A DNA stretch of 32,000 nucleotides from an uncultured Methanosarcinales archaeon (GCA_964550525.1 CAZJZJ010000002.1:15618-47617), one strand, 5' to 3'. Counted from the first letter of the stretch, positions 7,395 to 31,514 are shown. A program made the numbers and translations. Notes: a model not told the origin generated them from the letters alone.

Positions 7395-7589
7395 ATGAAA
7401 AAAGAGGACCTAAGAAAACTAAAGTTAAGGTTGGGTCTTGAAGAAGACAGATACCCTGTTTTCTCTTTAGACCAGGAATTTGAAGAAGAAAAGGACATAT
7501 ATTCTGAGCAGGGCGCAAACAGTTGTTGTGAAGACGATCAGATCAATCCTGCAGAAGAGGGGTTTATGAAAGGTTATCTTGCTGCATAG
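7395..7589 (+). CDS. Hypothetical small acidic protein (64 aa)
   Basis: An internal ATG is preceded by GGAGGTGA. The track's start at 7368 has no SD. Confidence 0.5.
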   Translation: MKKEDLRKLKLRLGLEEDRYPVFSLDQEFEEEKDIYSEQGANSCCEDDQINPAEEGFMKGYLAA

Positions 7590-16867: not shown

Positions 16868-17157
16868 AATTCACCCCTTTTATGTCATTTTATGAGCTGG
16901 AACTTTATAAATCTTACTATTCCGAAACATTTATAAACTTAGTCTAACCTATTTCTACAACATGAAAATAAACACTATTGCTAAAATTGCAATTCTTTCA
17001 ATAGTGATTATCCTGATTATATAGAATTCTTAGGTTCCAGGTGCCTGACAAGTGCCTGTAACTGAGGCGTTGTTTCCCAAGATAAGGTTTTATTCTTTTT
17101 TCACAAAAAAGCGGTGAGGTGTTTAAGATCACAGATAATCATGAGGAGGATAAGAAA

Positions 17158-17637
17158 ATGAGAAGTGTAAGTTTAGATCAAAAATTGGCTGAAATCACTG
17201 TTCCAGCTGGTGTTTTAGAATCATGGGCAAGGAATCACAGAGATGAAATCTATGCAGACGAGCTGTATCTGCATCTGATTGCAGATGAAAACGATATTCA
17301 TCTGAAAAAAGCTAAAAAACTTATAGGCAATTTCATTGGTGGGAAATATAGAGGTACAAGGTATGTTACACAAGATATGAATTCTCTAGGTCCAGCAAAG
17401 CATACTTTTGCACGATTTACATTCAAGGAAAAGGTTGATGTAGATCAATTATACCATCTAATGCTTTCTGTAGGTTGTAGTTTTGAGATTCTTTCAGCAG
17501 GTTTTAAAGACTACTTAGGTAGGTTTGCTTTTAAGAGAAGAAATGTTACTGTAGATTTTTTAGATACAGGACATTATTCTTTAAGACATCATACAGCAGC
17601 CTATGTTATGAATCCAGAACTAAAACCAAAATCCTAA
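17158..17637 (+). CDS. Hypothetical protein (159 aa from ATG 17158; alternative GTG at 17119)
   Basis: GAGGAGG lies 10 nt before ATG 17158. No motif recognised. It sits directly upstream of the carboxyltransferase gene. Confidence 0.55.
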   Translation: MRSVSLDQKLAEITVPAGVLESWARNHRDEIYADELYLHLIADENDIHLKKAKKLIGNFIGGKYRGTRYVTQDMNSLGPAKHTFARFTFKEKVDVDQLYHLMLSVGCSFEILSAGFKDYLGRFAFKRRNVTVDFLDTGHYSLRHHTAAYVMNPELKPKS

Positions 17638-17720: not shown

Positions 17721-19268
17721 ATGGCTATGTTTAATGATAAGATAAAGGAATACGAGGCTAAAGTCAAGGAGACTGAGCCTAGTCCTGAAGCTGTTAAAAA
17801 GCAGCACGATAAAGGCAAACTTACAGCCAGAGAAAGGATAAAACTCCTTGTAGATTCTAATTCTTTCAATGAAATAGACGCTTTAGTTAAACTAAGATCA
17901 CACAATTTTAATCTTCAGGATAAAAAAAAAGCAGGAGATGCAGTTGTAACAGGTTATGCAACTGTGAATAAAAGGCCTGTTTACTTGTATGCTCAGGATT
18001 TCACTGCAATTGGTGGTTCTTTAGGAGAGATGCATGCTGACAAAATAGTTAAAATAATGAAAGAAGCAGTTAAAACAGGCACACCTTTTGTTGCAATCAA
18101 TGATTCAGGCGGTGCTCGTATACAAGAAGGAGTTAACAGCTTGGATGGTTATGGTAAAATATTCAAAGCAAACACATTTGCTTCTGGAGTAATACCTCAG
18201 ATCTCAGTTATTTTAGGTCCATGTGCAGGCGGTGCTGTTTACTCACCTGCAATTACAGACTTTGTGTTCATGGTCAACAAGCTTAGCCATATGTTCATCA
18301 CAGGCCCCGATGTGATTAAATCTGTAACAGGTGAAGAGATTTCTTTTGAAGACCTGGGTGGAGCTTCTGTTCATAACAAAAAAAGCGGTAATGCACATTT
18401 CTTATGTAAAGATGAAAAACAATGCTTTGAAAAGATCAAACAACTATTATCTTATTTACCTCAAAACAATATGGAAAGTCCTCCTGTAAAAACAACAGGA
18501 GATAGTATAAATAGGAAGAATACTAAACTTAAAGAGATAGTACCAGCAGAGTCAAAACAATCCTATGACATTAAACAAGTCATTGATGAGATTGCAGATA
18601 AAAACACTTTCTTTGAAGTGCATGAACACTTTGCACAAAGCGCTGTAGTGGGTTTTGCACGTCTAGTTGGCAATGTTGTTGGTATAGTAGCTAACCAGCC
18701 TTTGGTTTTAGCTGGTGTACTTGATATTCATTCTTCTGACAAGATTGCACGTTTTGTACGTTTCTGTGATTCATTCAATATTCCTTTAATTACTCTTGTG
18801 GATGTACCTGGTTATTTACCTGGAGTTGAACAAGAACACGGTGGTATAATTAGACATGGTGCAAAGATGTTGTATGCGTTCGCAGAAGCAACTGTGCCTA
18901 AGATTGCTTTAGTTATAAGAAAAGCTTACGGCGGAGCATACATAGCAATGTGTTCTCGTGCTTTAGCTTATGATAAGCTTATTGCATGGCCAACAGCTGA
19001 GATAGCTGTTATGGGTCCTGAACAAGCAGCCAAGATTATTTATCGTAGAGATATAAAAGCTTCAACAGACCCTGCAAAAACAGAAGCAGAGAAAGTATCT
19101 GAGTTCAAAGACAAATTCCTAAATCCATATGTCGCTGCTGAAGAAGGCAGAGTTGACATGGTTATCAATCCAGAAGACAGCAGGCTAACCTTAATCAAAT
19201 GTTTACAAATGCTTCTTACAAAACGCGAGAAAAGAATGCCTAAGAAGCATGGGAATATTCCTTTGTAA
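17721..19268 (+). CDS. pccB: Acyl-CoA carboxylase carboxyltransferase subunit (propionyl-CoA carboxylase beta / methylmalonyl-CoA carboxyltransferase family)
   Basis: Length is 515 aa. Motifs: DSGGARIQEGV, GPCAGGAVYSPA, RKAYGGAYIAM. Confidence 0.92.
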   Translation: MAMFNDKIKEYEAKVKETEPSPEAVKKQHDKGKLTARERIKLLVDSNSFNEIDALVKLRSHNFNLQDKKKAGDAVVTGYATVNKRPVYLYAQDFTAIGGSLGEMHADKIVKIMKEAVKTGTPFVAINDSGGARIQEGVNSLDGYGKIFKANTFASGVIPQISVILGPCAGGAVYSPAITDFVFMVNKLSHMFITGPDVIKSVTGEEISFEDLGGASVHNKKSGNAHFLCKDEKQCFEKIKQLLSYLPQNNMESPPVKTTGDSINRKNTKLKEIVPAESKQSYDIKQVIDEIADKNTFFEVHEHFAQSAVVGFARLVGNVVGIVANQPLVLAGVLDIHSSDKIARFVRFCDSFNIPLITLVDVPGYLPGVEQEHGGIIRHGAKMLYAFAEATVPKIALVIRKAYGGAYIAMCSRALAYDKLIAWPTAEIAVMGPEQAAKIIYRRDIKASTDPAKTEAEKVSEFKDKFLNPYVAAEEGRVDMVINPEDSRLTLIKCLQMLLTKREKRMPKKHGNIPL

Positions 19269-19300
19269 TTAGAATTGTTGGGGGGGCGGAATGATCCAAA

Positions 19301-20203
19301 ATGACATGGGCAGGTATACAAGTTGGGAATGATGGGATGATTGGTAAATATTATCCTTGGCGAATAATGAAAAAAATTCTTTCTGGAGAACTCTCTCCTG
19401 ATTTTGAATATCGTGCTTGGAGATCATTGATTGAAAGATTTGAAAGAGAGGAAAGATTAAAAGAAGGAGGACTGGAGCAAGCAACAAAACAACTTTCTGA
19501 GTCTTTTAGGGATTTATACAGGGTTTTTGGTCGTGAAAACACAGCTAAGGTTCTAGGAATGCTTCAAATTGAATTTCTATATCCTGAAGAACAAAAATCA
19601 ATAATGGAGCAATATGAAGAATTAAAATTAAATGTAGTTAAAAGAAAAAAGGAATTTGACGAGTTTATCAATGTTCTTGAGAATGAAACCAACTGGCTTA
19701 CTGCTCCTGCAAGTACAAGGTATCGTCTAATTGAAGAAGGTGGGTTATTAACACACTCTGTAAGGGTTTGCAATACTTACTTAAAATTACTTCAACTATT
19801 GGCTCCTAATATCTCTGTAGAAAGTGGTACTGTTGATGGTTTATTTCATGATGCAGGTAAAGCAGGCATGCCAGGAGTACCTTATTATATGAAACAGGAA
19901 GATGGGAGTTATATTAAAAACCCAGAGCTTGAAAAAATGCAGCCTGGAATGACTGTAGCTCAAAGAAGTTTACTTTTAATCTCAAATTATATCCCCTTAA
20001 GTCATCAAGAAAGGCAAGCAGTTGAATATCATGATGGTTTGTATAGGCCAGAAAACTGGGCTGTTGCAAATGACGAATACCCTCAAACTATATTGCTTAT
20101 AGCTGCAGATGGCTGGACAGCAGGTGTAACTGACATTAATAAACCTGTTGTAGATGGAAAACCTTTTAATAGGAAAGATGCTCACTCTTTAAAGCGTAAT
20201 TAA
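19301..20203 (+). CDS. HD-superfamily metal-dependent phosphohydrolase
   Basis: GGLLTHSVRV...GLFHDAGKA...AVEYHDG...LLIAADGW gives the H..HD..H..D pattern. The exact start is uncertain. Confidence 0.65.
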   Translation: MTWAGIQVGNDGMIGKYYPWRIMKKILSGELSPDFEYRAWRSLIERFEREERLKEGGLEQATKQLSESFRDLYRVFGRENTAKVLGMLQIEFLYPEEQKSIMEQYEELKLNVVKRKKEFDEFINVLENETNWLTAPASTRYRLIEEGGLLTHSVRVCNTYLKLLQLLAPNISVESGTVDGLFHDAGKAGMPGVPYYMKQEDGSYIKNPELEKMQPGMTVAQRSLLLISNYIPLSHQERQAVEYHDGLYRPENWAVANDEYPQTILLIAADGWTAGVTDINKPVVDGKPFNRKDAHSLKRN

Positions 20204-20216
20204 AGGTGAAATCAAT

Positions 20217-20603
20217 ATGCCACGCAAAATCAAAGTAACTGTGAACAATAAGGATTATGATGTTGGAGTTACTGAGTTAGGAGGCGGAAAGCTAAAACTA
20301 GAGTTAGAGGGTGAATCCTATGAAGTGGATACAAAGGAAGAAGAAACAACCTCTGAGCAAAAAACTGATTCTGTTGAGATTGAATCCAGTGAAAACGTAA
20401 TCAAAGCTCCAATGCCTGGCACAGTCCTTGGAATAAATGTTAAGCCAGGTGATAAAGTCAAGAAAGGCGACCCTGTAGTTACTTTGATAGCTATGAAAAT
20501 GGAAAACAAGATTACTTCTCCGAAAAAAGGCAAAGTCAAGGAAATCAAGGTTAAAGAAGGCCAGAATGTTGAATCAGGGGATGTACTTGTAGTTCTGGAA
20601 TAA
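20217..20603 (+). CDS. accB: Biotin carboxyl carrier protein
   Basis: C-terminal biotinyl domain with the IAMKMENKI attachment motif. AAGGTGA SD. Confidence 0.9.
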   Translation: MPRKIKVTVNNKDYDVGVTELGGGKLKLELEGESYEVDTKEEETTSEQKTDSVEIESSENVIKAPMPGTVLGINVKPGDKVKKGDPVVTLIAMKMENKITSPKKGKVKEIKVKEGQNVESGDVLVVLE

Positions 20604-20737
20604 TTCTATTCTTCCCAATAAATGAACAATTCACCACTCTTAAATGAACTCCATTCCCAAACTTCTCTAAAATAGTGACAAAGCTTTTTATAGCCATGAA
20701 TCAATAATTCACTAACCTTTAAAACGAGGTGACGCGC

Positions 20738-21076
20738 ATGCAAGACATGGTAGGGAAATGGGCCTTCATCATCGGTGTGGTGTTGGCTATAATTGCAGGA
20801 TTCGTCGCTATACCCTTTACAGCGTTTGTACTGGCTGTGTTAGGTTTAGTTGTAGGATTCCTGAACATTACAACTAAGGAAACAAACAATTTCTTGATGG
20901 CAGCTATTGCTTTGCTGGTATTAGGAGCAGCTTCTTTAGGTGCTATTGGAGAAGTGACAGTTCTAAAGATGGTAGCAGAATGGGTTGAATCAATCCTAAC
21001 AAACATAATAGCATTTGTAGCTCCAGCTGCATTGGTAGTTTCTTTAGAAGCAATCTATAAGATAGGTCAAAAATAG
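20738..21076 (+). CDS. Small integral membrane protein
   Basis: ATG lies 6 nt after GAGGTGA. Four hydrophobic segments. Confidence 0.6.
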   Translation: MQDMVGKWAFIIGVVLAIIAGFVAIPFTAFVLAVLGLVVGFLNITTKETNNFLMAAIALLVLGAASLGAIGEVTVLKMVAEWVESILTNIIAFVAPAALVVSLEAIYKIGQK

Positions 21077-21098
21077 GCCTAATTTTTTTCTTTTTTTC

Positions 21099-21323
21099 TT
21101 AACCACTTCTTCCTTTGTTAGCAAATAGAATTCCTATCAGTACAGTCAAGCCCCAAGCTTTCCATACTGTAAGCTTACCAATAACCCCCTTGGTTACGCT
21201 TGGCAGTATCCAATTCCATAACAGGAATACAGGATAAGCAAGTATAAGGCCAACTACAATAGTAAGTCCAAGTGCAACAGCAATCATAGTTGCTTTGTTA
21301 AATATATCTTTCAATAACCCCAT
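21099..21323 (-). CDS. Small membrane protein (74 aa)
   Basis: Start moved to MGLLKD (ATG 21323), preceded by AGGTGAT. The track's longer N-terminus has no SD. Confidence 0.5.
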   Translation of the reverse strand: MGLLKDIFNKATMIAVALGLTIVVGLILAYPVFLLWNWILPSVTKGVIGKLTVWKAWGLTVLIGILFANKGRSG

Positions 21324-21415
21324 AAATATCACCTGTAAATTAGGGTAGTTAGGGGGTTTAAAAATTTTATGGAAAAAACTAAAACAATAAATACAACCTC
21401 TCCATTCCCATAACC

Positions 21416-21811
21416 ATGGAACTTGGTAATGATGACTGGTGTTTTGCATGCGGTAAGTATAATCCGCACGGATTACAACTAGATATAAAGATTGAAGGCA
21501 AGAAATCCTATTTTGAATTCACACCAAAGAAACAGCATCAAGGATATCAAGACTTTCTTCACGGCGGTATAATGTCTACTCTGCTAGATGAAGCAGTTGG
21601 CAACCTTGTTTGGCGGCTTGGATTAGGAGCAGTAACAGCTAAGATAGAAGTAAACCTGAGAAAACCTGTGAAAATAGGAGAAAAACTATTTGTAACCGGC
21701 GAAGTAATCAAAGAACAAGGACGTAAAGTATTCGCAAAATCAGAAGCACGAACAGAAGACGGAGTTGTAGTTGCAGATTGTGAAGCGCTTTTGATTAAGC
21801 TTAAGAAATAG
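21416..21811 (+). CDS. PaaI/4HBT-type hotdog-fold acyl-CoA thioesterase
   Basis: CFACGKYNPHGL, HGGIMSTLLDEA and a length of ~130 aa are typical of PaaI-family thioesterases. Confidence 0.75.
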   Translation: MELGNDDWCFACGKYNPHGLQLDIKIEGKKSYFEFTPKKQHQGYQDFLHGGIMSTLLDEAVGNLVWRLGLGAVTAKIEVNLRKPVKIGEKLFVTGEVIKEQGRKVFAKSEARTEDGVVVADCEALLIKLKK

Positions 21812-22487
21812 TCCCCTCAACAACAACTTCCCTAGAACCATCCTCTTTCTCAACAATTAAATTGCAATCAGAATCAACATCAATAGCTTTGCCGACAATC
21901 TCTCCATTACCGAAAACATCTACTCTTACATCCCTGCCAATTGTGTCAGAAAGCTCTTTCCATTCAGCGATTATTTCTTTTTTGTTTTTTTTATAGTAAT
22001 GTTCAAAGTTTTTTAGAATGTTTTTTATTATCTCTTCTTTATCAAACTCTTTACCTTTAATCTCTTTAACACTAATCCCTTCCTCAACATCATTATTAAC
22101 ATTCAAACCAATTCCAACAACCATCTTACTGTCCTCAGCAACAACATTCTCAGTCAACATCCCGCACAACTTCTTTCCTTCATAAACCAAATCATTTGGC
22201 CACTTGATGCCAGCTTCAACAGAGCAAACCTCAAAAACAGCTTTACGCACAGCAAGCGCTGTAATAAAAGTCATGAATTTCATATTCTCAATCTCTGTCT
22301 TAATAACCAATGACATGTAAACTCCGCCTTCTTCAGAACTCCAGCTACGGTCAAACCTGCCACGACCTTTAGTCTGTTTATCTGCAACTATAGCTGTACC
22401 TACTGGTATTTCTTTTGCTTTATCCATAGTAGAATCCAGTTCCTTGAAATGCATTACTTTAAACATTTTAGAATCTTCCTTGGTCAT
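21801..22487 (-). CDS. birA: Biotin-[acetyl-CoA-carboxylase] ligase
   Basis: KGRGRFDRSW (GRGRxGRxW motif). An alternative start at ATG 22466 lies 1 nt after the accC stop. Confidence 0.88.
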   Translation of the reverse strand: MTKEDSKMFKVMHFKELDSTMDKAKEIPVGTAIVADKQTKGRGRFDRSWSSEEGGVYMSLVIKTEIENMKFMTFITALAVRKAVFEVCSVEAGIKWPNDLVYEGKKLCGMLTENVVAEDSKMVVGIGLNVNNDVEEGISVKEIKGKEFDKEEIIKNILKNFEHYYKKNKKEIIAEWKELSDTIGRDVRVDVFGNGEIVGKAIDVDSDCNLIVEKEDGSREVVVEGTIS

Positions 22488-24453
22488 AAAAATTACCCAG
22501 CATCTGCTGTCTTGATGCCATTACCCATGCACTTTGTTTTTGTGTATAATCAACCTCGCACATTGGATATTGTTCAGTGCCAAGGTACTGTGAAACAGCA
22601 GCAGCAATCACAGCAATCCTTTTACCATTAGTAAGCTCTTCTTTATTTTTAACTTCAAGTATTTTTTTAACTTTATCTAAAATCTTATTCCTTTCAATAA
22701 ATGTAGTGTTTATATTACCGTGCCTGAAATCTTCTGTCTCAAAAGCAACTGAGTGGAATGGGATAGTTGTATCCACACCTTCAATAATATACTCTTCTAA
22801 AGCACGTCTCATTCGTGCAATTGCTTCGTTCCTGTTCTTACCAAAACACATTAATTTTGAAATCATTGAATCGTAATGAGGTGAAATTTTGTAACCAGTA
22901 TGTGAACAACTGCATACTCTAATTCCAGGACCTCCTGGCGGAAGATAATTTGTGATAGTCCCTGGGCAAGGCATGAAATCATTTTCAACACTCTCAGCAT
23001 TAATCCTGCATTCAATTGCCCAACCTCTAAAATGAATATCCTCTTGTTTTAATGTAAGTTTAGCACCTGCAGCAACCTTGATCTGCTCTTTGACAAGATC
23101 AACTCCAGTAATCATCTCTGTAATCCCATGTTCAACCTGTATCCTTGTATTCATCTCCATAAAAAAGAAATTGCCTTTATCATCAAGCAAAAACTCAACA
23201 GTACCAGCACCCTCATAACCAGCAGCTTTGCCTGCTTTAACAGCAGCTTCACCCATAGTTTCCCTTAACTCAGGTGTTAGAGCAACTGAAGGAGCTTCTT
23301 CAATTAGCTTCTGATGTCTTCTTTGAATAGAACATTCTCTTTCACCAAGATGGATTACATTACCATACTGATCTGCCAGCACTTGAAACTCAATATGTCT
23401 AGGTTCTTCAAAATATTTCTCAATATATACATCTTTATTTCCAAAAGAACTTTTTGCTTCAGCCATAGCACTTTTGATAGCAGGCATTAGTTCTTCTTCT
23501 TTATTCACTATCCTCATACCTTTACCACCGCCGCCTGCAGTCGCTTTTACAATAACAGGGTAAACTAGTTCTTTAGCAATCCTTACTGCTTCTTCTTTAT
23601 CCTGTACTGCACCTTCAGTACCAGGTATCACAGGCACACCTACCTCTTTCATTGTATGCCTTGCAATAATCTTATCTCCCATCATCTGGATAGTTCTTTC
23701 TTTCGGCCCGATAAATTTGATGTTATTCTTTTTACACATCCTTGCAAAACCAGCGTTTTCTGCTAAAAACCCATAACCTGGATGCACAGCATCAACATTT
23801 GCTTTCTTAGCAATCTTGATGATTTTAGCTGGGTCAAGATAGCTTCTTGTAGAGCCAATATTATAAGATTCATCTGCGAACTTAACTGCAAGGGAATTCT
23901 TGTCCTCATCTGAATAAACAACTGCAACTTTTACACCTAACTCTCTGGCAGCCCTCATGATCCTTACAGCAATCTCCCCTCTGTTTGCTATCAATATCTT
24001 CCCAAACATTAGCTTAGGCTCAATAGAAGTGAAGTCCACACTCTCTTCTGTCAAACTTCCTACCCCCTTGGTTATTATGTCAAGGAAAGATTCTGGAGGC
24101 TTATCTTTAATCATTTTTCTCCAGTTATCTGTATTAAGTGTAGGCAGTTTTTTTAATAGATTATCTGTAAATATCTCACCGAGACTGTTAAGATCAGTCT
24201 TACCCTTGCCATCTCTCTTACTTGTTTCAATAGTCACAACATGAGACTTAACAACAGACATAACCTGATCATATACCTGTGGAAACCTCCTCTTAGTCTT
24301 CTTAGCCAGTCCAGCCAGCTTCTTAAATCCTCGGTTAAAAGGAGTAAGAAATCTATTCATAGCCTTAGATTCATCCAACCTATCCAATGGTTTCTTAATA
24401 AGTTTATCATACATTGGATTAATCTTTTTTATCTTTGTCATAAAACCACGCAT
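22468..24453 (-). CDS. accC: Biotin carboxylase with a ~148-aa N-terminal and a ~65-aa C-terminal extension
   Basis: The core runs from MFGKILIANRGEIAVRI (aa 149) and includes GGGGKGMRIV and MNTRIQVEH. The extension frames are open with no stop. Confidence 0.9.
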   Translation of the reverse strand: MRGFMTKIKKINPMYDKLIKKPLDRLDESKAMNRFLTPFNRGFKKLAGLAKKTKRRFPQVYDQVMSVVKSHVVTIETSKRDGKGKTDLNSLGEIFTDNLLKKLPTLNTDNWRKMIKDKPPESFLDIITKGVGSLTEESVDFTSIEPKLMFGKILIANRGEIAVRIMRAARELGVKVAVVYSDEDKNSLAVKFADESYNIGSTRSYLDPAKIIKIAKKANVDAVHPGYGFLAENAGFARMCKKNNIKFIGPKERTIQMMGDKIIARHTMKEVGVPVIPGTEGAVQDKEEAVRIAKELVYPVIVKATAGGGGKGMRIVNKEEELMPAIKSAMAEAKSSFGNKDVYIEKYFEEPRHIEFQVLADQYGNVIHLGERECSIQRRHQKLIEEAPSVALTPELRETMGEAAVKAGKAAGYEGAGTVEFLLDDKGNFFFMEMNTRIQVEHGITEMITGVDLVKEQIKVAAGAKLTLKQEDIHFRGWAIECRINAESVENDFMPCPGTITNYLPPGGPGIRVCSCSHTGYKISPHYDSMISKLMCFGKNRNEAIARMRRALEEYIIEGVDTTIPFHSVAFETEDFRHGNINTTFIERNKILDKVKKILEVKNKEELTNGKRIAVIAAAVSQYLGTEQYPMCEVDYTQKQSAWVMASRQQMLGNFYDQGRF

Positions 24454-24599: not shown

Positions 24600-26123
24600 A
24601 TGACAGATTATAATGGTGAAACAAAAGTAGCCAGTCTTGAGGTTATTACTGATAGTACTCGACACGGCACTGCTATTAGGGCACTTGATATTCTAAAACG
24701 TAATCTAGAAACATCTGCTCCTGGTATTTCTTATTCCAGACCAAATGAAGGGGATCATAAAATAATTGACGTTTATTGTACTGCACTTAGTGATAAAGCA
24801 GCAGACCCAGTTGTGGTTCATACAAACCTAGTAAGGCTTTATAATGCATTAAGAGAATTCGAACGAACTGATGGTGGCGGCGGTAAAGTTAAAGTCAGTA
24901 CTAGACTGACAATCTATCCCTTAGGAAACACAAGTGAGTTAAATGAGTATAAAGATGCTAATGCTGAATTAACTGTTGAGAAGGATAAATTTAAAAAACA
25001 GTATGGAGAATCTCAACAAGAAGTCAAAAAAATAGAAGCAGATAATGCAAATAAAGACGAACAAATAGAAGATAAAGACAAAGAACTAGGGAGAAAGGGT
25101 AGGAAGATTACTTCTTTAGAGAGAAGGCTTAAAAAAGCAAAGGGAAAGCTTTCTTCAAAAGGTATATCAACTATATCATATGAAGATTCAGCTACACCAG
25201 AGAATCTTGCAGATGTTTTAGATATAAATAGAGCTGTTTACGAGGATCACGATCAAAAGTGTAGAACTGATTATGTATCTAATGAAGAAAAGTTAATAGA
25301 CGAGGTTTTCTATGAGGCTTCTGAAGAGATTAATACACGAAGATTGTTTAGTGATAATCAATTAGACAAAGCATTGAATCTTATTACTCGTGGAGAAAAC
25401 TATGAAGAGAACTTAAAAAGTTTAGATAACTTACCTTTGACGCCTGAAGAAATCAAAAAGATTAAGGAAGATACTAAACAAAAAGCTGAAGAAAACCTGA
25501 GATGGGCAAGAGAGCTTGAAGGAGCTTATAACAACACTAAGGAATATAAAGTCTTAGTTAGAATTGCAAAGGATGAAGATCAATTGAGAATTGTATTGCC
25601 TGTTGATGCAAAATCAGATAATGAAGTTGTAAAAGCACTATATCAGAGCCTTATTAATAGCCTAAGGGGTTTGAAAGCAAAAGATGATTCAGTATCATAT
25701 TCTGAAATAAAGGATGTGCCTTATACTTCATTCCAAGTAAGCGGAATATCAGATTATGATATGTTGAAAGCAGCTATTACAAAAGGATTAGAAAATGTTG
25801 CTAAAGAAGCTATGCTTACTATTAATACATTTTATACTGACTTTTATGATGGAAGTGTTGCAGAAGCTCAAGCACAACTTGAGTCTTTAGATGAATTTGT
25901 AGATTATCGGATTAAGCAAGTACTAACAAAGCCAGGTACAGAAGAGCATTATAAGGGTAGAACTGAATTCCTTAAAATCAAAGGATTTAATCTGAGCACC
26001 ACTCTGAGCAGAATAAACAATGGCAAAAAGATTAGAGCAACAACCATGCAAAAAATGGCAGATGCTCTTGGTGTCGATGTTTCTGAGTTAGAAAAGAGAT
26101 TACCTACTTCCAAGACTAGCTGA
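24600..26123 (+). CDS. Hypothetical 507-aa protein: N-terminal alpha/beta domain, K/E-rich coiled coil, C-terminal XRE-type helix-turn-helix
   Basis: TGAGGT SD 8 nt upstream. The charged heptad-like region spans aa ~110-185. The C-terminus LSTTLSRINNGKKIRATTMQKMADALGVDVSELEK fits the Cro/C1 HTH pattern. Confidence 0.65.
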   Translation: MTDYNGETKVASLEVITDSTRHGTAIRALDILKRNLETSAPGISYSRPNEGDHKIIDVYCTALSDKAADPVVVHTNLVRLYNALREFERTDGGGGKVKVSTRLTIYPLGNTSELNEYKDANAELTVEKDKFKKQYGESQQEVKKIEADNANKDEQIEDKDKELGRKGRKITSLERRLKKAKGKLSSKGISTISYEDSATPENLADVLDINRAVYEDHDQKCRTDYVSNEEKLIDEVFYEASEEINTRRLFSDNQLDKALNLITRGENYEENLKSLDNLPLTPEEIKKIKEDTKQKAEENLRWARELEGAYNNTKEYKVLVRIAKDEDQLRIVLPVDAKSDNEVVKALYQSLINSLRGLKAKDDSVSYSEIKDVPYTSFQVSGISDYDMLKAAITKGLENVAKEAMLTINTFYTDFYDGSVAEAQAQLESLDEFVDYRIKQVLTKPGTEEHYKGRTEFLKIKGFNLSTTLSRINNGKKIRATTMQKMADALGVDVSELEKRLPTSKTS

Positions 26124-26245
26124 AACCCCAAAAAACCGCTTTCTCAGCCCGTATTAAGTTCTTATACTCTAAAACATAAAACTTTTTAAATAGTAAAAGT
26201 TTTCGCCGTATACTCAGATTTTACCACAATATGGAGGGGGTATAT

Positions 26246-26749
26246 ATGAGCGAGATGATAGATGGACTTAAGGATGAGAATGGTCAGCTTGATCATAATT
26301 CAATCAAGCAGATAATACCATATGATTATCCGTTTTTAATGATAGATAGGGTAATTTTGTTGCAAAAAGACAAGATTATGGCAATAAAGAACGTTACAAT
26401 CAATGAACACTTCTTTAAAGGCCATTTTGCAGGTTTCCCTATTATGCCAGGCGCAATGATGATTGAAGGTATGGGCCAAGCAGCAACTTTGCTTGCTAGG
26501 TATAACCTAGAAAACCATCATGAGAAAGAGTGTCTAGCTTTTAAGATCAAAGACGCTAAATTCATTAAACCTGTATTCCCAGGCGACCAGATGAGGTTTG
26601 AGGTTGCTTTACAGGGTATGAACGAGAAAGGAGCAGCAGTCGCAGGCAAAGTCATTGTCAATGAAGCAGTAGTTGCAGAAGCGATGATGATGATTGCTGT
26701 TGTTGACAGGCAAAGCTTTAGAGCGAAATACAGTGGGATGTTCAAATAA
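26246..26749 (+). CDS. fabZ: FabZ-type 3-hydroxyacyl thioester dehydratase (hotdog fold)
   Basis: Start at the ATG after GGAGGGGG. Motifs: PFLMIDRV, HFFKGHFAGFPIMPGAMMIEGMGQ. Confidence 0.85.
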   Translation: MSEMIDGLKDENGQLDHNSIKQIIPYDYPFLMIDRVILLQKDKIMAIKNVTINEHFFKGHFAGFPIMPGAMMIEGMGQAATLLARYNLENHHEKECLAFKIKDAKFIKPVFPGDQMRFEVALQGMNEKGAAVAGKVIVNEAVVAEAMMMIAVVDRQSFRAKYSGMFK

Positions 26750-26787: not shown

Positions 26788-27909
26788 ATGTACATTGCTG
26801 GCGTTGGAATGACAAAGTTTACCATAAGTAATAAGACTACAATGGATCTAGCTTATGAAGCAGCAGTTGAAGCTTTAGAAGATTCCAACATAAATTATGA
26901 TGATATTGATGCAGTGGTAGTATCTACAGTTGACACTAAATACAATCTTGAGAGGCAGAGACATTATAATTCCTTATTAGCTAGTTTATTCAAAAGAAAG
27001 ATGCCTATTATCCGAACAACTGCTGTATGCGGTGGTGGCGGGCTTGCTTTTTGGCAGGGTTTACGTATGAAATATGATAATGTGCTTGTACTTGCAACAG
27101 ATAAGGTATCTGTGAACAATACCAAAAATATCACAGACGTGATTCTACAAGCTGCAGACCGTATTTGGGAGCAGACAGAAGGTCTTATCTTTCCTGCACA
27201 AAACGCATTAGTAGCACAGCAGCATATGCAGAAATTCGGTACAACCCATGACCAGCTTGCTTTAATCGCCCATAAAAACCATTGTAACGCAGCAATTAAC
27301 CCAAAAGCTCATTTCTATGGCAAGAAGATTGATCTTGATACAATCAAAAACGCACCTGTTGTAGCTTCTCCTTTTACTTTATTCGATTGCAGTATATCTG
27401 TTAACGGAGCTGCTGCTGCTGTTATAACAAACAAAAAAACAGACATAAAAGTTGCAGGCTCAGGTACATGTGTAGACTACTTAGCAACATTTGAACGTGA
27501 AGATATGACAACTTGGAGAGCCACTTTAGAAGCAGCTAGACAAGCATATCAGCAAGCAGGTGTAACTCCTAAAGATGTAGATGTAGCTGAAGTGCATGAC
27601 GCATTTACAATCGTTGAATTAATCGCTTATGAAGACCTAGGTTTTTGCAAAAAAGGTGAAGGCGGTAAGTTTATTGAATCAGGTAAACCATTACTTGATG
27701 GAGAACTACCTGTAAATACAAGCGGCGGATTAAAAGCTAAAGGCCATCCAATATCTCCAACTGGTATGGCACAGATAGTTGAGGTTGTTGAACAGCTTAG
27801 AGGAAAAAGTGGTGATCGTCAGGTTAAAGACGCAAAGATAGGCTTAACTCAGAATATCGGTGGTGCTGGAGGCTCTATTACTGTTAATATTCTTAAGAAG
27901 GTGGATTAA
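26788..27909 (+). CDS. Archaeal/SCP-x-type thiolase (acetyl-CoA acetyltransferase family)
   Basis: Length is 373 aa. It has a nucleophile Cys in TTAVCGGGG, plus HDAFTI, NTSGGLKAKGHPISPTGM and GGAGGS. Confidence 0.88.
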   Translation: MYIAGVGMTKFTISNKTTMDLAYEAAVEALEDSNINYDDIDAVVVSTVDTKYNLERQRHYNSLLASLFKRKMPIIRTTAVCGGGGLAFWQGLRMKYDNVLVLATDKVSVNNTKNITDVILQAADRIWEQTEGLIFPAQNALVAQQHMQKFGTTHDQLALIAHKNHCNAAINPKAHFYGKKIDLDTIKNAPVVASPFTLFDCSISVNGAAAAVITNKKTDIKVAGSGTCVDYLATFEREDMTTWRATLEAARQAYQQAGVTPKDVDVAEVHDAFTIVELIAYEDLGFCKKGEGGKFIESGKPLLDGELPVNTSGGLKAKGHPISPTGMAQIVEVVEQLRGKSGDRQVKDAKIGLTQNIGGAGGSITVNILKKVD

Positions 27910-27910
27910 C

Positions 27911-30091
27911 ATGATTGAAAGATGGGTATGCAAAAAATGTAATAAAAAATGGATCTATCCTGTTGAAAAATGTGTTTATTGTTTTGGTAAGATTGAGAGT
28001 GAAGTAGGTAATAAGATGAAGGTTGTAGGCTTTACTCATGTAAAGATCCCTTCACCTATGCATCCGTTTGTACCTTACAATGTCTTAGTTCTTGAAGATG
28101 AGAACGGCAATAGGATGCCTAAGAAAACAATGAACATGGATTACAAAATCGGGGACGAATTTAAATTCAACACAAGCACAGATCCGCACGCAGTTTCTAT
28201 AGTGAAAATAAAATATAACACAGATCTTGCAGTGAAACAAGCTATAGATTACATCGGCGGGCTAAAGGTTGATAAAGATACAAAGATTATGTTAATACCA
28301 AATATCTTGATGCCAGCAAACTATTATCTTGGTGTTACAACACATCCATTGGTTGTAGCAGCTGTAGTGAAATACCTTGTTGAACATGGCGCTTCTAAAG
28401 ATAATATTGTTGTTGCAGCAAGAGCATTGCCAGGGTTATCTACAGAAAAAGCATTCAAGAAATCAGGTGTAGCTATAACCTGTAAAAAATTAGGACTAAA
28501 GAGCAAACATGTAGAAAAGAGTTCAGGTAAATTTAAGTTTAATATCCCTGAAGAGCTTTTCAATCAAGACCTAATAGTAAATATCCCTGGGTTGAAAACA
28601 CATGCTCAGTTGCAAGTATCAGCTGCTCTAGAAAACATGAGCAGAGTGGTTGACGCAAAAACACTTTACATGATGTACGCAATCAATATCCATGAAGCGA
28701 TTGCACATCTTAACAAGATTGTACCAAAATATTTTACAGTTGCTGATGCTATCAAAGGTATGCATGGTAAAGGCCCTGGTCTTGACGGTGAGCCTGTTTT
28801 CTTTAATTGCGTTACAGCAAGCCACGACCCTGTAGCCCATGATAGAACCTATCAAGAGATGGCAATGTTAAAAGAGCCAGATTACATAAAGATTGCTGCT
28901 AAAGAAGGTGTAGGTGAACGCGACCTAGAAAAAATACCTGATTGCTGCGATGAATTAATGGCATGCAAGATGGAAGTTAAACGTCCTGAAGGTAGCCTAA
29001 GCAACCATCCAACTGTAGAGATTATTGACGGTTTATCCTGTCCAATGGAGGTTGGTATGGTTCAAATGGTTTTAGCAAGATTATTTAAGCATCGAGCTAA
29101 AAAAATCACTGTAGCTGTAGGCAAAGAGCTTACTAAAGAGATGTTTGAAGGTAAAGAGAATATAGTTGCAGTAGGTGATTTAGCTATAAACAAATTAAAA
29201 GAGCTTGGAATAAAAACCATAAAAGATATCCCAGGCAAACCGCCTCAACCTTTAGATGTTGGCGGTACTTTGAAAGAATTACTAGGTGCAGAAAGAAAAG
29301 TTTCTTCTGCGCAAAAAGCTTCTATAGAAGTTAAGCAAGGAGGGATTAAAATGGATCTAAAAGGAAAAGTCGCTTTAGTTACTGGTGCAAGCCAGGGTAT
29401 AGGTAAAGCTATTGCTTTAAAACTAGCTAGCAGAGGTGCTAACATTGTTGTTAATGATATTAAGTCTGCAATAAACAACGCAGTTGTAACTGTAGAAGAG
29501 ATCAAAAAGTTTGGTGTAGATGCAATCTCTGTCGGAGCCAATGTAGCAGATTACAAAGAAGTTGAAGCAATGTATGAAATTGTTAAAGAGAAATTCGGCA
29601 AGGTTGACATAATTGTTAATAATGCAGGAATAACTCGTGATAAAACTCTTAAGAAGATGGATAAGGATATGTGGGAATCAGTTATTGGTGTTAATCTTAC
29701 AGGAATTTATAATGTAAGTAAACTTGGGTTAGAGTTAATCCCTGAAGGAGGCAGAATCATCAGTATTTCTTCAATTGTAGGTCAGAGAGGTAACTTTGGC
29801 CAGACAAATTATTCAGCTTCAAAAGCAGGTATAATCGGATTTACAAGGTCTTTAGCTAAAGAGCTTGGCAAGAAAAAAATTACAGTGAACGCAATTGCTC
29901 CTGGTTTTGTCGAATCAAGAATGACTGCAATGATACCAGAAGAAATGCAAAAGATAATGAAGAGACTAATTGGTTTAGGAAGATTTGCGCAGCCAGAAGA
30001 AGTTGCTAATGTAGTTGCTTTCCTAGCTTCACCAGATGCAGCTTATGTATCCGGCTGCACAGTTAATGTAGATGGTGCAATGTCGCTTTAG
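27911..30091 (+). CDS. Tri-domain fusion: DUF35-like Zn-ribbon/OB fold + DUF362 + 3-oxoacyl reductase (FabG-type SDR)
   Basis: ATG lies 1 nt after the thiolase stop, with AAGGTGGA SD. It contains CKKC..CVYC plus an OB segment, DUF362-like IMLIPNILMP..GVTTHPLVVAAVVKYL and NIPGLKTHAQL, then TGASQGIGKAIA, NNAGI and YSASKAG. An internal GGAGGG precedes ATG 29351. Confidence 0.8.
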   Translation: MIERWVCKKCNKKWIYPVEKCVYCFGKIESEVGNKMKVVGFTHVKIPSPMHPFVPYNVLVLEDENGNRMPKKTMNMDYKIGDEFKFNTSTDPHAVSIVKIKYNTDLAVKQAIDYIGGLKVDKDTKIMLIPNILMPANYYLGVTTHPLVVAAVVKYLVEHGASKDNIVVAARALPGLSTEKAFKKSGVAITCKKLGLKSKHVEKSSGKFKFNIPEELFNQDLIVNIPGLKTHAQLQVSAALENMSRVVDAKTLYMMYAINIHEAIAHLNKIVPKYFTVADAIKGMHGKGPGLDGEPVFFNCVTASHDPVAHDRTYQEMAMLKEPDYIKIAAKEGVGERDLEKIPDCCDELMACKMEVKRPEGSLSNHPTVEIIDGLSCPMEVGMVQMVLARLFKHRAKKITVAVGKELTKEMFEGKENIVAVGDLAINKLKELGIKTIKDIPGKPPQPLDVGGTLKELLGAERKVSSAQKASIEVKQGGIKMDLKGKVALVTGASQGIGKAIALKLASRGANIVVNDIKSAINNAVVTVEEIKKFGVDAISVGANVADYKEVEAMYEIVKEKFGKVDIIVNNAGITRDKTLKKMDKDMWESVIGVNLTGIYNVSKLGLELIPEGGRIISISSIVGQRGNFGQTNYSASKAGIIGFTRSLAKELGKKKITVNAIAPGFVESRMTAMIPEEMQKIMKRLIGLGRFAQPEEVANVVAFLASPDAAYVSGCTVNVDGAMSL

Positions 30092-30106
30092 GAATATTTA
30101 TCTGTA

Positions 30107-30241
30107 GTTTGCTTGTGACCGTCGAAGTCATTGGTTGCTTTGTTTGCGTAGTGTGTTTTTACGGAGCAAACAAGCAACGACGAGACGGAGCTTTGCTGAG
30201 CGTGTTTTGGCGAAGCAAAGCGTAGTAGGGCACAAGCAAAC
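30107..30241. other. 135-nt multi-hairpin element: 14-bp closing helix around two related hairpins (candidate ncRNA, cis-regulatory leader or MITE-like element)
   Basis: GTTTGCTTGTGACC (30107-30120) pairs with GGGCACAAGCAAAC (30228-30241), with 1 mismatch. Hairpin 1 spans 30121-30186 (~19 bp). Hairpin 2 pairs GCTTTGC (30190-30196) with GCAAAGC (30215-30221). Both 18-nt loops contain GTGTTTT. Confidence 0.5.
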
Positions 30242-30255
30242 GATAAAAACAAAAA

Positions 30256-30462
30256 ATGCCAAAATCAATCATAGACAAGGAATATTGTAAAGGTTGCATG
30301 CTTTGTGTAGACGCATGCCCATTGAAGTTGATCAAAGTAAGCAATGAGATGAATAAGAAAGGAGTTAAAATAGCAGAATTCGATGACAAGGAAGGAAAAT
30401 GTACAGGATGCAAGATGTGCGCTACAATGTGCCCTGAAGCTTGTATTGAGATAGAAAAATGA
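30256..30462 (+). CDS. 2x[4Fe-4S] ferredoxin (delta-subunit type of 2-oxoacid:ferredoxin oxidoreductases)
   Basis: CKGCMLCVDACP and CTGCKMCATMCP. Length is 68 aa. ATGA overlap with the next gene. Confidence 0.88.
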   Translation: MPKSIIDKEYCKGCMLCVDACPLKLIKVSNEMNKKGVKIAEFDDKEGKCTGCKMCATMCPEACIEIEK

Positions 30463-31514
30463 CAAAAAAAATCTTAATCAAAGGGAATGATGCAATCGGT
30501 GCAGCAGCTATAGCTGCGCAATGTGATGCGTATTTTGGTTATCCAATTACTCCTCAGAACGAACTTACTGCTTACATGTCTAAGTTTATGTTAGATGAGA
30601 AAAGAGTTTTTGTACAAGCAGAGGCAGAAGTATCAGCAATCAACATGGTATTCGGTGCAAGCGCAGCAGGTAAACGAGTAATGACTTCTTCATCTAGTCC
30701 TGGAATTAGTTTAAAACAAGAAGGTATTTCCTATATTGCAGGTGCAAGATTGCCTTGCGTTATAGTAAACATGCAAAGAGGAGGACCAGGCCTTGGCAAC
30801 ATAAGAGCTTCACAAAGCGATTATTTCCAAGCAACTAAAGGCGGTGGCCACGGAGATTATAAATTAATTGTACTAGCTCCTTCAACTGTCCAGGAATGTT
30901 ATGATTATACTATGATGGCTTTTGATTATTCAGATAAATACAGGGTTCCTGCAATGATACTTGGTGACGGTATTGTAGGCCAGATGATGGAACCTATAGA
31001 ACTTAAACCTTACAAAAAACCTAAACTTCCTGCAAAAGATTGGGCTGTTACTGGTAAAGAAGGTAGAAAAATGAATCTAGTTAGATCACTTTACCTGCAT
31101 CCAGCTCCTGCTTTGAAAGATCACAACATTGTTTTACAGGATACGTATAAAAAAATGAAACAAGAGATAACTCAGCACGAAGAGATTGAAACAGAAGATG
31201 CTGAACTTATTGTTGTATCCTGGGGCATCACTGCGCGTATAGCTAAATCTGCAATCAAACTTGCACGTAAAGATGGTATTAAAGTCGGCATGATTCGTCC
31301 AATCACATTATTCCCTTTCCCAGAGAAAGCAATATCAAAAATTGCTCAAAAAGACAGCACAAAACAATTTCTAGTCATGGAAATGAACTTCGGCCAAATG
31401 CTTGAAGATGTTAAGTTAGCAGTTAACGGCAAGAAACCAGTCAAGTTTTATGGCTGGGGCGGTGGATGGTATCCTACGCCAGAAGAATTGTATGAGGAGA
31501 TCAAGAGACAATGA
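30459..31514 (+). CDS. korA: 2-oxoacid:ferredoxin oxidoreductase alpha subunit (KorA/PorA/VorA family)
   Basis: GNDAIGAAAIAAQCDAYFGYPITPQNE, TSSSSPGISLKQEGISY, and VNMQRGGPGLGNI. Substrate specificity was not determined. Confidence 0.85.
   Translation: MTKKILIKGNDAIGAAAIAAQCDAYFGYPITPQNELTAYMSKFMLDEKRVFVQAEAEVSAINMVFGASAAGKRVMTSSSSPGISLKQEGISYIAGARLPCVIVNMQRGGPGLGNIRASQSDYFQATKGGGHGDYKLIVLAPSTVQECYDYTMMAFDYSDKYRVPAMILGDGIVGQMMEPIELKPYKKPKLPAKDWAVTGKEGRKMNLVRSLYLHPAPALKDHNIVLQDTYKKMKQEITQHEEIETEDAELIVVSWGITARIAKSAIKLARKDGIKVGMIRPITLFPFPEKAISKIAQKDSTKQFLVMEMNFGQMLEDVKLAVNGKKPVKFYGWGGGWYPTPEELYEEIKRQ

Follow-up and report, generated by a model that had tools for sequence, protein, structure and literature searches.

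A FabG-like ketoreductase fused, probably recently, to a putative DUF35-like/DUF362 thiolase adaptor in a DPANN archaeon

Results

We analyzed a 32,000-nucleotide stretch of DNA deposited under the name uncultured Methanosarcinales archaeon (GCA_964550525.1 CAZJZJ010000002.1:15618-47617; hereafter the window) and found on its plus strand a single open reading frame, at 27911..30091 with the stop codon included, that joins a DUF35-like zinc-ribbon module, a DUF362/LarA-like region and a FabG-like short-chain dehydrogenase/reductase (SDR) in one protein of 726 residues. This protein is probably the outcome of a recent fusion between a DUF35-like/DUF362 adaptor and a ketoreductase, and by analogy it would be a covalent version of the DUF35-mediated assembly of thiolase and ketoreductase known from Sulfolobus. 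The exact protein is recorded on a 61-kb NCBI contig, and a 99%-identical variant is present in an ENA assembly. The content of the window is archaeal (TFIIB, Orc1/Cdc6, an archaeal helicase and diphthamide synthase), and all 116 homologues of the adaptor retrieved by a word-indexed search belong to DPANN groups, namely Woesearchaeota, Nanoarchaeota and Pacearchaeota; the source organism is a tiny DPANN archaeon.

Architecture of the fusion protein

The frame begins with an ATG at 27911, one nucleotide beyond the stop codon of the upstream thiolase gene (TAA, 27907-27909), and closes with TAG at 30089-30091. The remaining two frames are rich in stop codons over 29170-29400, and a hidden frameshift or stop within the fusion frame was ruled out, both alternative frames being closed at the junction. 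An earlier note on this DNA, made from the sequence alone, had described one uninterrupted 726-residue frame composed of DUF35, DUF362 and SDR parts. The frame is confirmed at 27911-30091 and all three parts hold, DUF35 by structure only, but a fourth part, a LarA-like C-lobe, is also present.

The first of the four modules, residues 1-105 (27911..28225), consists of a four-cysteine zinc ribbon (C7, C10, C21 and C24) and an OB-type beta barrel; it was delimited from structure and would be the thiolase-docking domain. Residues 125-318 (28283..28864) form the DUF362 domain, identified by Pfam (PF04015), Foldseek and hhalign, which corresponds to the N-lobe of a LarA-like fold and contains K229-T-H231 (28595-28603), E241-N242 (28631-28636) and R245 (28643-28645). 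The LarA-like C-lobe follows at residues 319-460 (28865..29290); it was recognized from the structural model, Foldseek and alignments, and is degenerate in this protein. Residues 461-480 (29291..29350) form a linker with a predicted local distance difference test (pLDDT) score of ~60, the low-confidence tail of what appears to be a former DUF362 protein, and the DNA encoding them holds both a Shine-Dalgarno (SD) motif, GGAGGG, at 29339-29344 and an out-of-frame relic TAA at 29347-29349 within the string TAAAATG. The SDR, residues 481-726 (29351..30088), is complete.

By Pfam, NCBIfam and motifs this last module is a classical SDR resembling 3-ketoacyl reductases of the FabG type. The Pfam match to adh_short_C2/adh_short covers residues 486-724 (E 4e-62), and the TGASQGIG (491-498; TGxxxGIG at 29381-29404), NNAG (570-573; 29618-29629) and YSASK (634-638; YxxxK at 29810-29824) motifs are intact, with a Ser-Tyr-Lys catalytic motif. 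Among NCBIfam models the FabG subfamily model NF009466 is passed (246.1 > 222), while the FabG equivalogs are not (TIGR01830, 277.2 < 297.75; NF004198, 267.1 < 296), and the protein also lies under the cutoff of the acetoacetyl-CoA reductase (PhaB) equivalog. Met481 aligns with the start of stand-alone orthologues of 244-248 residues. At dinucleotide-binding positions the fusion protein has Q495 and D516, where most orthologues have R and Y, and therefore its cofactor preference may differ from theirs.

Origin of the fusion

A scan of species-representative genomes gave 80 loci with relatives of the adaptor, and gene order was counted over 81 loci (the scan plus earlier loci). A survey of split and fused forms, which the earlier note had proposed, found all 81 relatives split: the SDR is fused to DUF35::DUF362 in none of them, and the fusion is confined to the protein's own 99%-identity cluster. 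Seven of the 11 junctions in split relatives with an SDR downstream read TAA-A-ATG, and in locus L002 DUF362 runs to 7452, with the SDR gene beginning at 7454. In the window the junction reads AAG CAA GGA GGG ATT AAA ATG (fusion form, within 29320-29360, GGAGGGATTAAAATG); the TAAAATG string is kept, with its TAA shifted out of frame by one base. The nearest relative ends in KQVGG*, compared with KQGGIK-Met481 here, and the tail of the fused adaptor is as long as the C-termini of its homologues. A 1-nt deletion in the G-run (GGGG to GGG), or a 2-nt insertion before the stop, within the last one or two codons suffices to create the fusion: it puts the ancestral TAA out of frame, and the adaptor therefore reads on into the SD and ATG of the reductase.

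The hexamer GGAGGG lies in frame, 6 nt ahead of the ATG at 29351, and occurs only twice on the plus strand of the window. An SD geometry of -12/-11 is common to the operon genes at 26788 and 27911 and to this internal ATG. The signal, already reported in the earlier note, appears to be the native ribosome-binding site of a formerly separate SDR gene. The same note had suggested a recently lost stop codon, which is essentially right, although what happened was probably not a substitution of the stop codon itself but a frameshift, within the final one or two codons, leaving TAA out of frame. Judged from these junctions, the fusion appears to be a young, lineage-specific joining of two adjacent, translationally coupled genes.

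The junction recurs unchanged in another contig, deposited at ENA (SAMN10231903), which differs from the window by 9 single-nucleotide polymorphisms (SNPs) and no indels over 8,056 bp. This identity of the junction in a contig that differs by SNPs makes an assembly artefact unlikely. If it were one, a wrong base in the G-run, or in the A-runs just upstream of 29351, would mask the true stop, and the two genes would be separate, as they are in all 81 relatives; a change of one base can make or unmake the fusion, and short homopolymers flank the junction. However, two assemblies that were deposited separately and differ by 9 SNPs, without indels, over 8 kb share the junction, and on both sides of it the frame is open and homologous. 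Furthermore, a run of three or four G is no typical error hotspot. We consider an artefact the least probable of the explanations discussed in this work.

An N-terminal module resembling DUF35

The Pfam hidden Markov models (HMMs) of DUF35 (PF12172, DUF35_N; PF01796, OB_aCoA_assoc/OB_ChsH2_C) found no match in residues 1-130 or 1-480, even at E<=10. A comparison of the family profile with stand-alone Woesearchaeal DUF35 in hhalign was not significant (E 0.36), and a search of PDB sequences with the same profile gave nothing significant, with a marginal zinc-ribbon match to 6htj (E 0.53). However, in an AlphaFold model of residues 1-480 built from the 116 homologues (pLDDT 93.3; predicted template modeling score, pTM, 0.90), which matched both DUF35 and LarA-like folds, residues 1-~105 were matched by Foldseek to the DUF35 structures 7PXP (BbsA), 6OK1 (ChsH2-DUF35 bound to Ltp2), 5M3K (PhlB), 9VBT (MucB), 6ESQ, 3IRB and 6HTJ. 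When the module was modeled alone (pLDDT 87.9), the top 17 Foldseek matches were all DUF35 structures (7pxp, 6ok1, 6esq, 5m3k, 9vbt and 6htj), with E from 3e-4 to 6.5e-3, a template modeling score (TM) of ~0.5 and an identity of ~20%; the next match had an E of at least 0.5.

The module is also the best-conserved part of the family, with 12 invariant residues. In its C7-x2-C10...C21-x2-C24 motif, C7, C21 and C24 are found in 114 of the 116 members (the other two are gapped there) and C10 in 98. It adjoins a thiolase in 81/81 loci, usually across a gap of 5-30 nt, and the thiolase gene is in every case directly upstream of DUF35::DUF362; the co-occurrence of DUF362 with thiolase that the earlier note wished to see surveyed thus extends to all 81 loci, and none of the findings that the note had named as refuting it was made. 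By predicted fold and genomic behavior, though not by HMM, the module is best described as DUF35-like.

A degenerate LarA-like domain in the middle region

The HMM borders that the earlier note had called for (DUF362 at residues 127-313, SDR at 486-724) identify the middle region as a real DUF362. PF04015 matches it with an E of 2.4e-31 and 109.8 bits, against a cutoff of 24, over profile positions 2-197 of 200, and is the sole family match in residues 1-480, where no flavin, Fe-S or NAD(P) family was found. The Lar_N HMM of Pfam has no match in the fusion protein. A profile search of the full library recovered ~7,500 DUF362 relatives (cluster representatives), of which the top ~45 only carry the N-terminal module; the others are stand-alone proteins of 370-420 residues. 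Seventy-three stand-alone proteins from this search (alignment A2) represent canonical DUF362, and the family aligns with them in hhalign at probability 100 and E 4.6e-71.

No sequence relative of the DUF362 part was found in the PDB. In the model, residues ~125-460 match structures of LarA/Mar2 lactate/malate racemases (best Foldseek E 5.5e-9, probability 1.0). The matches to 7s91, 9eia, 6d6z, 2yjg, 9q3j, 6c1w and 5huq range in E from 5.5e-9 to 2e-4, and their TM is only 0.33-0.42 because the orientation of the lobes differs. On this model, DUF362 alone would be the N-lobe of a two-lobe LarA fold. PF04015 and DUF2088, the LarA N-domain family (PF09861), are both members of Pfam clan CL0471 (PMC11770544). 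LarA tethers its nickel-pincer nucleotide (NPN) through Lys184 and uses His200 as the fourth nickel ligand, and His108 and His174 are the acid/base pair in proton-coupled hydride transfer (PMC11770544; PMC9283937), while Arg75 contacts phosphate (PMC11770544).

In alignment A2 the Lys of 'KPN' and the Lys of 'KN' are invariant, as is a His located 15 residues past the KN Lys, and the His of 'KTH' is near-invariant. The C-terminus of these proteins carries a CxxC...C...GCPP (Cys4) motif; a weak ferredoxin-like similarity was seen in this region (HycB3, E 0.0033). Three independent alignments place KTH, KN and the +15 His in register with LELH, GGHK and EKNH of Mar2, that is, with His174, Lys184 and His200 of LarA (E 0.18 and 0.09 for 6D6Z with the family and canonical profiles, respectively, and E 0.0024 for the canonical profile with LarA fragments). 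The LarA sequences in the last of these, fished with a Mar2 fragment, were short fragments only and served for a weak, register-consistent profile comparison. Equivalents of His108 and Arg75 could not be mapped in these alignments. The pattern suggests that canonical DUF362 proteins could bind a LarA-like cofactor and a metal cluster. We found no paper on this idea, nor one describing the function of DUF362 or the DPANN DUF35::DUF362 architecture.

In contrast to the canonical proteins, the thiolase-linked family has E in place of K at position 241 (115/116), R in place of G at position 245 (110/116), N (69 of 116) or H (31) at position 231, where canonical DUF362 has H, and mostly Y/F in place of H at position 256; of the four cysteines of Cys4 it has three at most. 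The fusion protein itself has I129, H231, E241, Y256 and one Cys4 cysteine, which is non-conserved. It has lost K129, Q171 and also E170, a position that is E/D in 79/79 canonical proteins and E in 102 of the 116 family members. At family-conserved positions it deviates by 9% in the DUF35 module, which is ordinary, by 27% in the DUF362 N-lobe and by 52% in the C-lobe; only 7 of 114 members are as deviant in the N-lobe, and 2 of 78 in the C-lobe. The C-lobe is mostly missing in ~40% of the family (a class of ~372 residues).

A proposed role for the fusion

We propose that the operon (a FabZ-type dehydratase, thiolase, DUF35::DUF362, then a FabG-like reductase and/or a second thiolase, beside an acyl-CoA carboxylase block) encodes parts that would work together as follows. 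The N-terminal zinc-ribbon/OB module would dock on the thiolase dimer, as in solved DUF35 complexes, and the fusion would hold the NAD(P)H-dependent ketoreductase at the thiolase, whose product, a 3-ketoacyl thioester and probably a CoA ester, could then be reduced once formed; this would pull the unfavorable Claisen condensation forward. The DUF362/LarA-like module, apparently catalytically degenerate, would most likely be a structural or ligand-binding adaptor and not a redox enzyme, its target perhaps being a second thiolase paralogue or the CoA moiety, and the reductase may also be translated alone from the retained internal SD and ATG. The analogy draws on the thiolase/HMG-CoA synthase complex, BbsAB, Ltp2-ChsH2, PhlABC and the ketothiolase/DUF35/ketoacyl-CoA reductase/dehydratase complex of Sulfolobus.

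Several observations weigh against this proposal. The docking of the DUF35-like module on the thiolase is predicted by analogy with solved complexes, and its homology to DUF35 is seen by structure only (TM ~0.5), with nothing from Pfam and an hhalign E of 0.36. The mapping of DUF362 residues onto LarA comes from weak alignments (E 0.09-0.18 and 0.0024), although their register agrees and both fold and clan support it. The G-run has been seen at the assembly level only, in at least two assemblies, and without an enoyl reductase in the window a catalytic gap stays. Finally, the N-lobe keeps polar residues of canonical DUF362, with K229 and N242 invariant and T144, N224, D279 and D311 conserved in at least 95%, and the family-specific E241 and R245 are near-invariant across the 116 members. 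Such conservation looks like that of a maintained ligand or active site and not of an inert spacer.

Because K229, N242, D279, D311, E241 and R245 are so strongly conserved, we retain a substantial rival, in which the module would catalyze a reaction or bind a substrate in a new way unlike that of LarA. It would use the family-specific E241/R245 pocket and would be placed by DUF35 at the thiolase active site, like HMG-CoA synthase in the mevalonate complex; malonyl-CoA decarboxylation or transfer, acyl or CoA transfer, and chemistry on 3-keto/3-hydroxy intermediates are among the possible activities. Beyond these residues, it speaks for this rival that the gene has a fixed place between two thiolase paralogues, that an ATP-dependent carboxylase always adjoins, and that in known complexes DUF35 does bring a second enzyme to the thiolase. 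However, E170, K129 and Q171 are gone from the fusion protein, which departs from the family at 27-52% of the conserved positions of the module; ~40% of the family have no C-lobe, the part that makes up half of the active-site cleft in LarA; and no similarity to a characterized decarboxylase or transferase was found. A new enzyme is a minority view, rather unlikely but deserving attention, and we favor the reading of the module as an adaptor.

The downstream ferredoxin and the enoyl-reductase question

The 2x[4Fe-4S] ferredoxin gene that the earlier note placed at 30256 is present at 30256-30462 (plus strand). It encodes 68 residues whose best matches, under cutoffs, are delta subunits of 2-oxoacid:ferredoxin oxidoreductases, and its stop overlaps, in the ATGA at 30459-30462, the start of a gene for a VorB-like alpha subunit of such an oxidoreductase (30459-31514, plus strand; NF005507, 538 > 399). 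The ferredoxin appears to be the delta subunit of this adjacent oxidoreductase, a unit neighboring the fusion. A spacer of 164 nt (30092-30255) separates the fusion frame from the ferredoxin gene; in relatives with ferredoxin or VorB after DUF362, the genes abut or overlap. Higher in GC than the flanking DNA and without a match in Rfam, the spacer is found in the window and in locus L001 only. Its fold, a long closing stem around two internal hairpins, is unusually stable (-63.7 kcal/mol, z -5.46, 0/200 shuffles as stable), and the spacer could be a terminator or processing element, or the scar of a rearrangement that put the oxidoreductase after the SDR. The oxidoreductase may supply acyl-CoA primers, which would be a simpler reason for its co-localization with the operon.

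The hypothesis of the earlier note makes DUF362 the missing enoyl-thioester reductase, with electrons from the downstream ferredoxin; in a variant of this idea it would use a LarA-like hydride cofactor. The premise stands, in that family searches found no known enoyl-reductase family and no acyl carrier protein (ACP) among the window's ORFs, and the window contains no ADH_zinc_N protein of MDR (medium-chain dehydrogenase/reductase) type. DUF362 also belongs to the clan of LarA, a hydride-transfer enzyme, ferredoxin/VorB lies directly downstream of DUF362 in 12 of 81 relatives and of the fusion here, and reduced ferredoxin from the oxidoreductase would need a sink. Yet the DUF362 part has no homology to known reductase families (FabI/FabL/FabV, FabK, MDR enoyl-CoA reductases, acyl-CoA dehydrogenase/Etf), no match to a flavin, Fe-S or NAD(P) family and no recognizable redox-cofactor site. 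The family is without equivalents of LarA Lys184 and His200, mostly without that of His174, and without a complete Cys4, its C-lobe is absent in ~40% of members, and no larB, larC or larE was found among the window's ORFs. Furthermore, the ferredoxin is translationally coupled to VorB and set apart from the fusion by the structured spacer, and in 52 of 81 relatives the downstream gene encodes a thiolase, not an oxidoreductase. Other candidates for enoyl reduction are SDR-type enoyl/dienoyl-reductase-like paralogues elsewhere in some relatives and the FabI annotations in DPANN MAGs (metagenome-assembled genomes; PMC10936187). With the LarA-type residues and Cys4 lost and the ferredoxin belonging to the oxidoreductase, we regard a ferredoxin-linked reductase as very unlikely. 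The weaker alternative in that note, DUF362 as a channeling module, fits the evidence.

The operon and its neighbors in DPANN relatives

Gene order in relatives is near-invariant, with a divergent biotin carboxylase gene followed by FabZ, thiolase and DUF35::DUF362. The next downstream gene encodes a second thiolase paralogue (52-57% identity with the first one) in 52/81 loci, a FabG-like SDR in 11/81 and ferredoxin/VorB in 12/81; in our case a second thiolase beyond the end of the window (32000) is possible. The first operon gene of the window encodes the FabZ-type 3-hydroxyacyl dehydratase (26231..26749, plus strand; NF000582 FabZ, 137.6 bits > 113), whose position is conserved in relatives and which also matches ApeI/ApeP-like models. 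It is followed by the thiolase (26788..27909, plus strand), of the archaeal/SCP-x type by family match and the putative partner of the DUF35-like module. An acyl-CoA carboxylase block (17721..24453), which also flanks the operon in relatives, comprises the carboxyltransferase (17721-19268), biotin carboxyl carrier protein (BCCP; 20217-20603) and a 4HBT thioesterase (21416-21811) on the plus strand, and biotin ligase (21801-22487) and biotin carboxylase (22468-24453) on the minus strand.

In 42 loci that are 15 kb or longer, genes were counted up to 10 kb from the operon. Carboxyltransferase was found in 23 of these loci, BCCP in 25, BirA in 34, a methyltransferase in 19, glycerol-3-phosphate (G3P) dehydrogenase (GpsA) in 23 and two PlsC-type acyltransferases in 25 each. 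Locus L089 (18113-20417) is an example with a bacterial-type GpsA-like G3P dehydrogenase and two PlsC-type acyltransferase genes; no GpsA or PlsC-type gene was found in the window. The GpsA, PlsC and carboxylase neighbors therefore indicate acyl-chain synthesis for glycerolipids, and hint at the synthesis of fatty-acyl G3P ester lipids in DPANN relatives. Annotations of FabG, FabI and FabZ in DPANN MAGs agree with acyl-chain synthesis (PMC10936187).

The operon might instead serve another pathway, such as synthesis of a biotin precursor (pimeloyl-CoA), a beta-oxidation-like degradation, or a polyketide or aryl-polyene-like product, with the tethering role of the fusion unchanged. The cluster in locus L088 is adjoined by BioB/F/D-like genes, a methyltransferase, a CaiB-type CoA-transferase and a patatin, methyltransferases occur in 19 of 42 loci, one of them fused to an SDR in L002, and the dehydratase matches ApeI/ApeP-like models. 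However, BioB, BioF and BioD are each found in only 1-2 of 42 loci, on which ground the pimeloyl-CoA pathway was rejected as a general explanation; GpsA and the two PlsC-type acyltransferases are found in 23-25 of 42; and FabZ- and FabG-type enzymes with an ATP-dependent carboxylase indicate synthesis, not degradation. We consider a different pathway unlikely, if only slightly more so than a new enzymatic role for the DUF362 module.

A bolder and decidedly speculative reading, to which we give little credence, envisions a fatty-acid synthase that is DPANN-specific and independent of ACP, with DUF35::DUF362 as its organizing hub and possibly as a new catalytic component. A neofunctionalized lactate-racemase-fold domain with the E241/R245 pocket would carry out enoyl reduction or couple malonyl-CoA from the carboxylase to thiolase-type condensation, the two thiolase paralogues with FabZ and FabG would feed bacterial-type G3P ester lipids via the GpsA and PlsC genes nearby, and the 726-residue fusion would be a first step to a covalent archaeal megasynthase.

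Other features were observed around these genes. The biotin carboxylase of the window has 661 residues (622-637 in relatives), with Biotin_carb_N starting at residue 149 and a ~145-residue N-terminal extension without a Pfam match. Between this gene and FabZ, relatives have a short divergent intergenic region; at 24600-26123 of the window, and otherwise only in L001, lies a gene for a 507-residue coiled-coil protein with a C-terminal helix-turn-helix (weak HTH_3/HTH_26). A 116-residue ORF in the carboxylase/biotin-ligase block (21099-21449, minus strand) has no family match and is conserved in 25 of 42 loci, and a 75-residue hydrophobic ORF without a family match (L088, 5286-5513, minus strand) is found in 30 of 42 relatives and was not detected in the window. 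Neither the 300-residue ORF between carboxyltransferase and BCCP (19301-20203) nor the 172-residue ORF upstream of the carboxyltransferase (17119-17637) has a family match or a counterpart in related loci. Rfam and tRNA scans of the window returned no match.

Among relatives, an S-adenosylmethionine-dependent methyltransferase and a FabG-like SDR form one 573-residue protein in L002 (10422-12143) and are encoded by two adjacent genes (329 and 244 residues) in L088 (13795-15525); the methyltransferase has no NCBIfam match. In several groundwater Woesearchaeota MAGs (L002 4929-6004, L010, L021, L026, L028, L030, L042 and L052) the thiolase genes on either side of DUF362 appear to be broken into two or three pieces by frameshifts, with 174 and 135 residues in L002; these could reflect pseudogenization, assembly errors or programmed events. 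Approximately 5 kb downstream of the operon, L088 (16529-20229) encodes a KAS-III/HMGCS-like protein, a thiolase, a stand-alone 104-residue DUF35, a MaoC dehydratase and a 269-residue SDR, and this separate set, present in some relatives, resembles Sulfolobus-type components. The best matches of the 269-residue SDR, under cutoffs, are 2,4-dienoyl-CoA reductase and FabL, making it a possible enoyl-reductase candidate. The cluster-linked second SDR paralogues of relatives were also considered as FabI/FabL and are FabG-like instead; only the SDR by the MaoC/DUF35 set resembles dienoyl-CoA reductase/FabL. Many related MAGs from 'binchicken' co-assemblies (L008-L078) are titled 'uncultured Methanosarcinales archaeon', and their loci are collinear with those of Woesearchaeota and Nanoarchaeota MAGs; the label on those MAGs is probably a placeholder or a mislabel.

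Discussion

DUF35-mediated thiolase complexes are an emerging explanation for how archaea carry out non-decarboxylative Claisen condensation, in the mevalonate pathway and in Sulfolobus fatty-acid synthesis. The locus described here points to a whole DPANN clade with a different version, in which a DUF35-like module is permanently fused to a degenerate LarA-superfamily domain and encoded between two thiolase paralogues. It bears on the 'lipid divide', that is, on whether some archaea make bacterial-type fatty-acyl lipids, and it gives one branch of the large and functionally uncharacterized DUF362 family a concrete role that can be tested. The putative LarA cofactor-binding triad and Cys4 of canonical DUF362 proteins provide, in turn, a lead to DUF362 chemistry.

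Comparison with known systems

Residues ~125-460 share a two-lobe fold and clan CL0471 with the LarA superfamily (5HUQ, 6D6Z/7S91, 9EIA). The family differs from LarA in having (H/N)231, E241 and Y/F256 and no complete Cys4, and the window has no genes for NPN biosynthesis. The reductase part is, like bacterial FabG and PhaB, a complete classical SDR with an intact Ser-Tyr-Lys motif, and it passes NF009466; unlike them, it falls under the equivalog cutoffs, is fused to an adaptor and has no ACP in the window.

The best structural matches to residues 1-105 are ChsH2-Ltp2 of Mycobacterium tuberculosis (6OK1) and the benzoylsuccinyl-CoA thiolase BbsAB (7PXP). ChsH2 is a precedent for DUF35 fused to a pathway enzyme and recruiting a thiolase-fold protein, but there DUF35 lies C-terminal of a MaoC hydratase, in a degradative system, whereas here the DUF35-like module is N-terminal and its partners are DUF362 and an SDR. 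In the thiolase/HMG-CoA synthase/DUF35 complex (PDB 6ESQ), the DUF35 subunit is matched by our N-terminal module (E ~1e-3, TM ~0.5, 21% identity), and the gene described here likewise adjoins that of a thiolase, with a second thiolase-fold gene usually on the other side. What differs from 6ESQ is the second partner, a paralogue of the first thiolase (52-57% identity) in place of HMG-CoA synthase; in addition, the DUF35-like module carries an extra LarA-like domain of ~375 residues, and some relatives also have a separate KAS-III-like/thiolase/stand-alone DUF35 set.

The closest comparison is the archaeal fatty-acid synthesis (FAS) system of Sulfolobus acidocaldarius, composed of the ketothiolase Saci_1121, DUF35 Saci_1120, the SDR ketoacyl-CoA reductase Saci_1104, the MaoC dehydratase Saci_1085 and a separate MDR enoyl-CoA reductase, Saci_1115 (bioRxiv 10.1101/2024.07.05.601840). 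In its KT/DUF35/ACR/HCD complex, DUF35 mediates assembly and reduction pulls condensation forward (bioRxiv 10.1101/2024.07.05.601840). In both systems the thiolase has a DUF35-type partner beside it and is accompanied by an SDR ketoreductase and a hotdog-fold dehydratase, and the intermediates would be the same; here the ketothiolase, DUF35-like module and SDR are encoded together (26788-27909 and 27911-30091). The differences are that DUF35 is fused to a LarA-like DUF362, and to the reductase in the lineage of our protein only; that the dehydratase is of the FabZ/FabA type and not MaoC, with no MDR enoyl reductase in the window; that an acyl-CoA carboxylase is always adjacent and two thiolase paralogues flank the adaptor gene; and that the hosts, in which such a complex is predicted, are DPANN, a lineage not mentioned in that study. 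Viewed against these systems, we rate the DUF35::DUF362 adaptor family and its operon as the more interesting result and the triple fusion as minor and recent. Nevertheless, the fusion is a natural experiment, one that argues that adaptor and ketoreductase share one complex.

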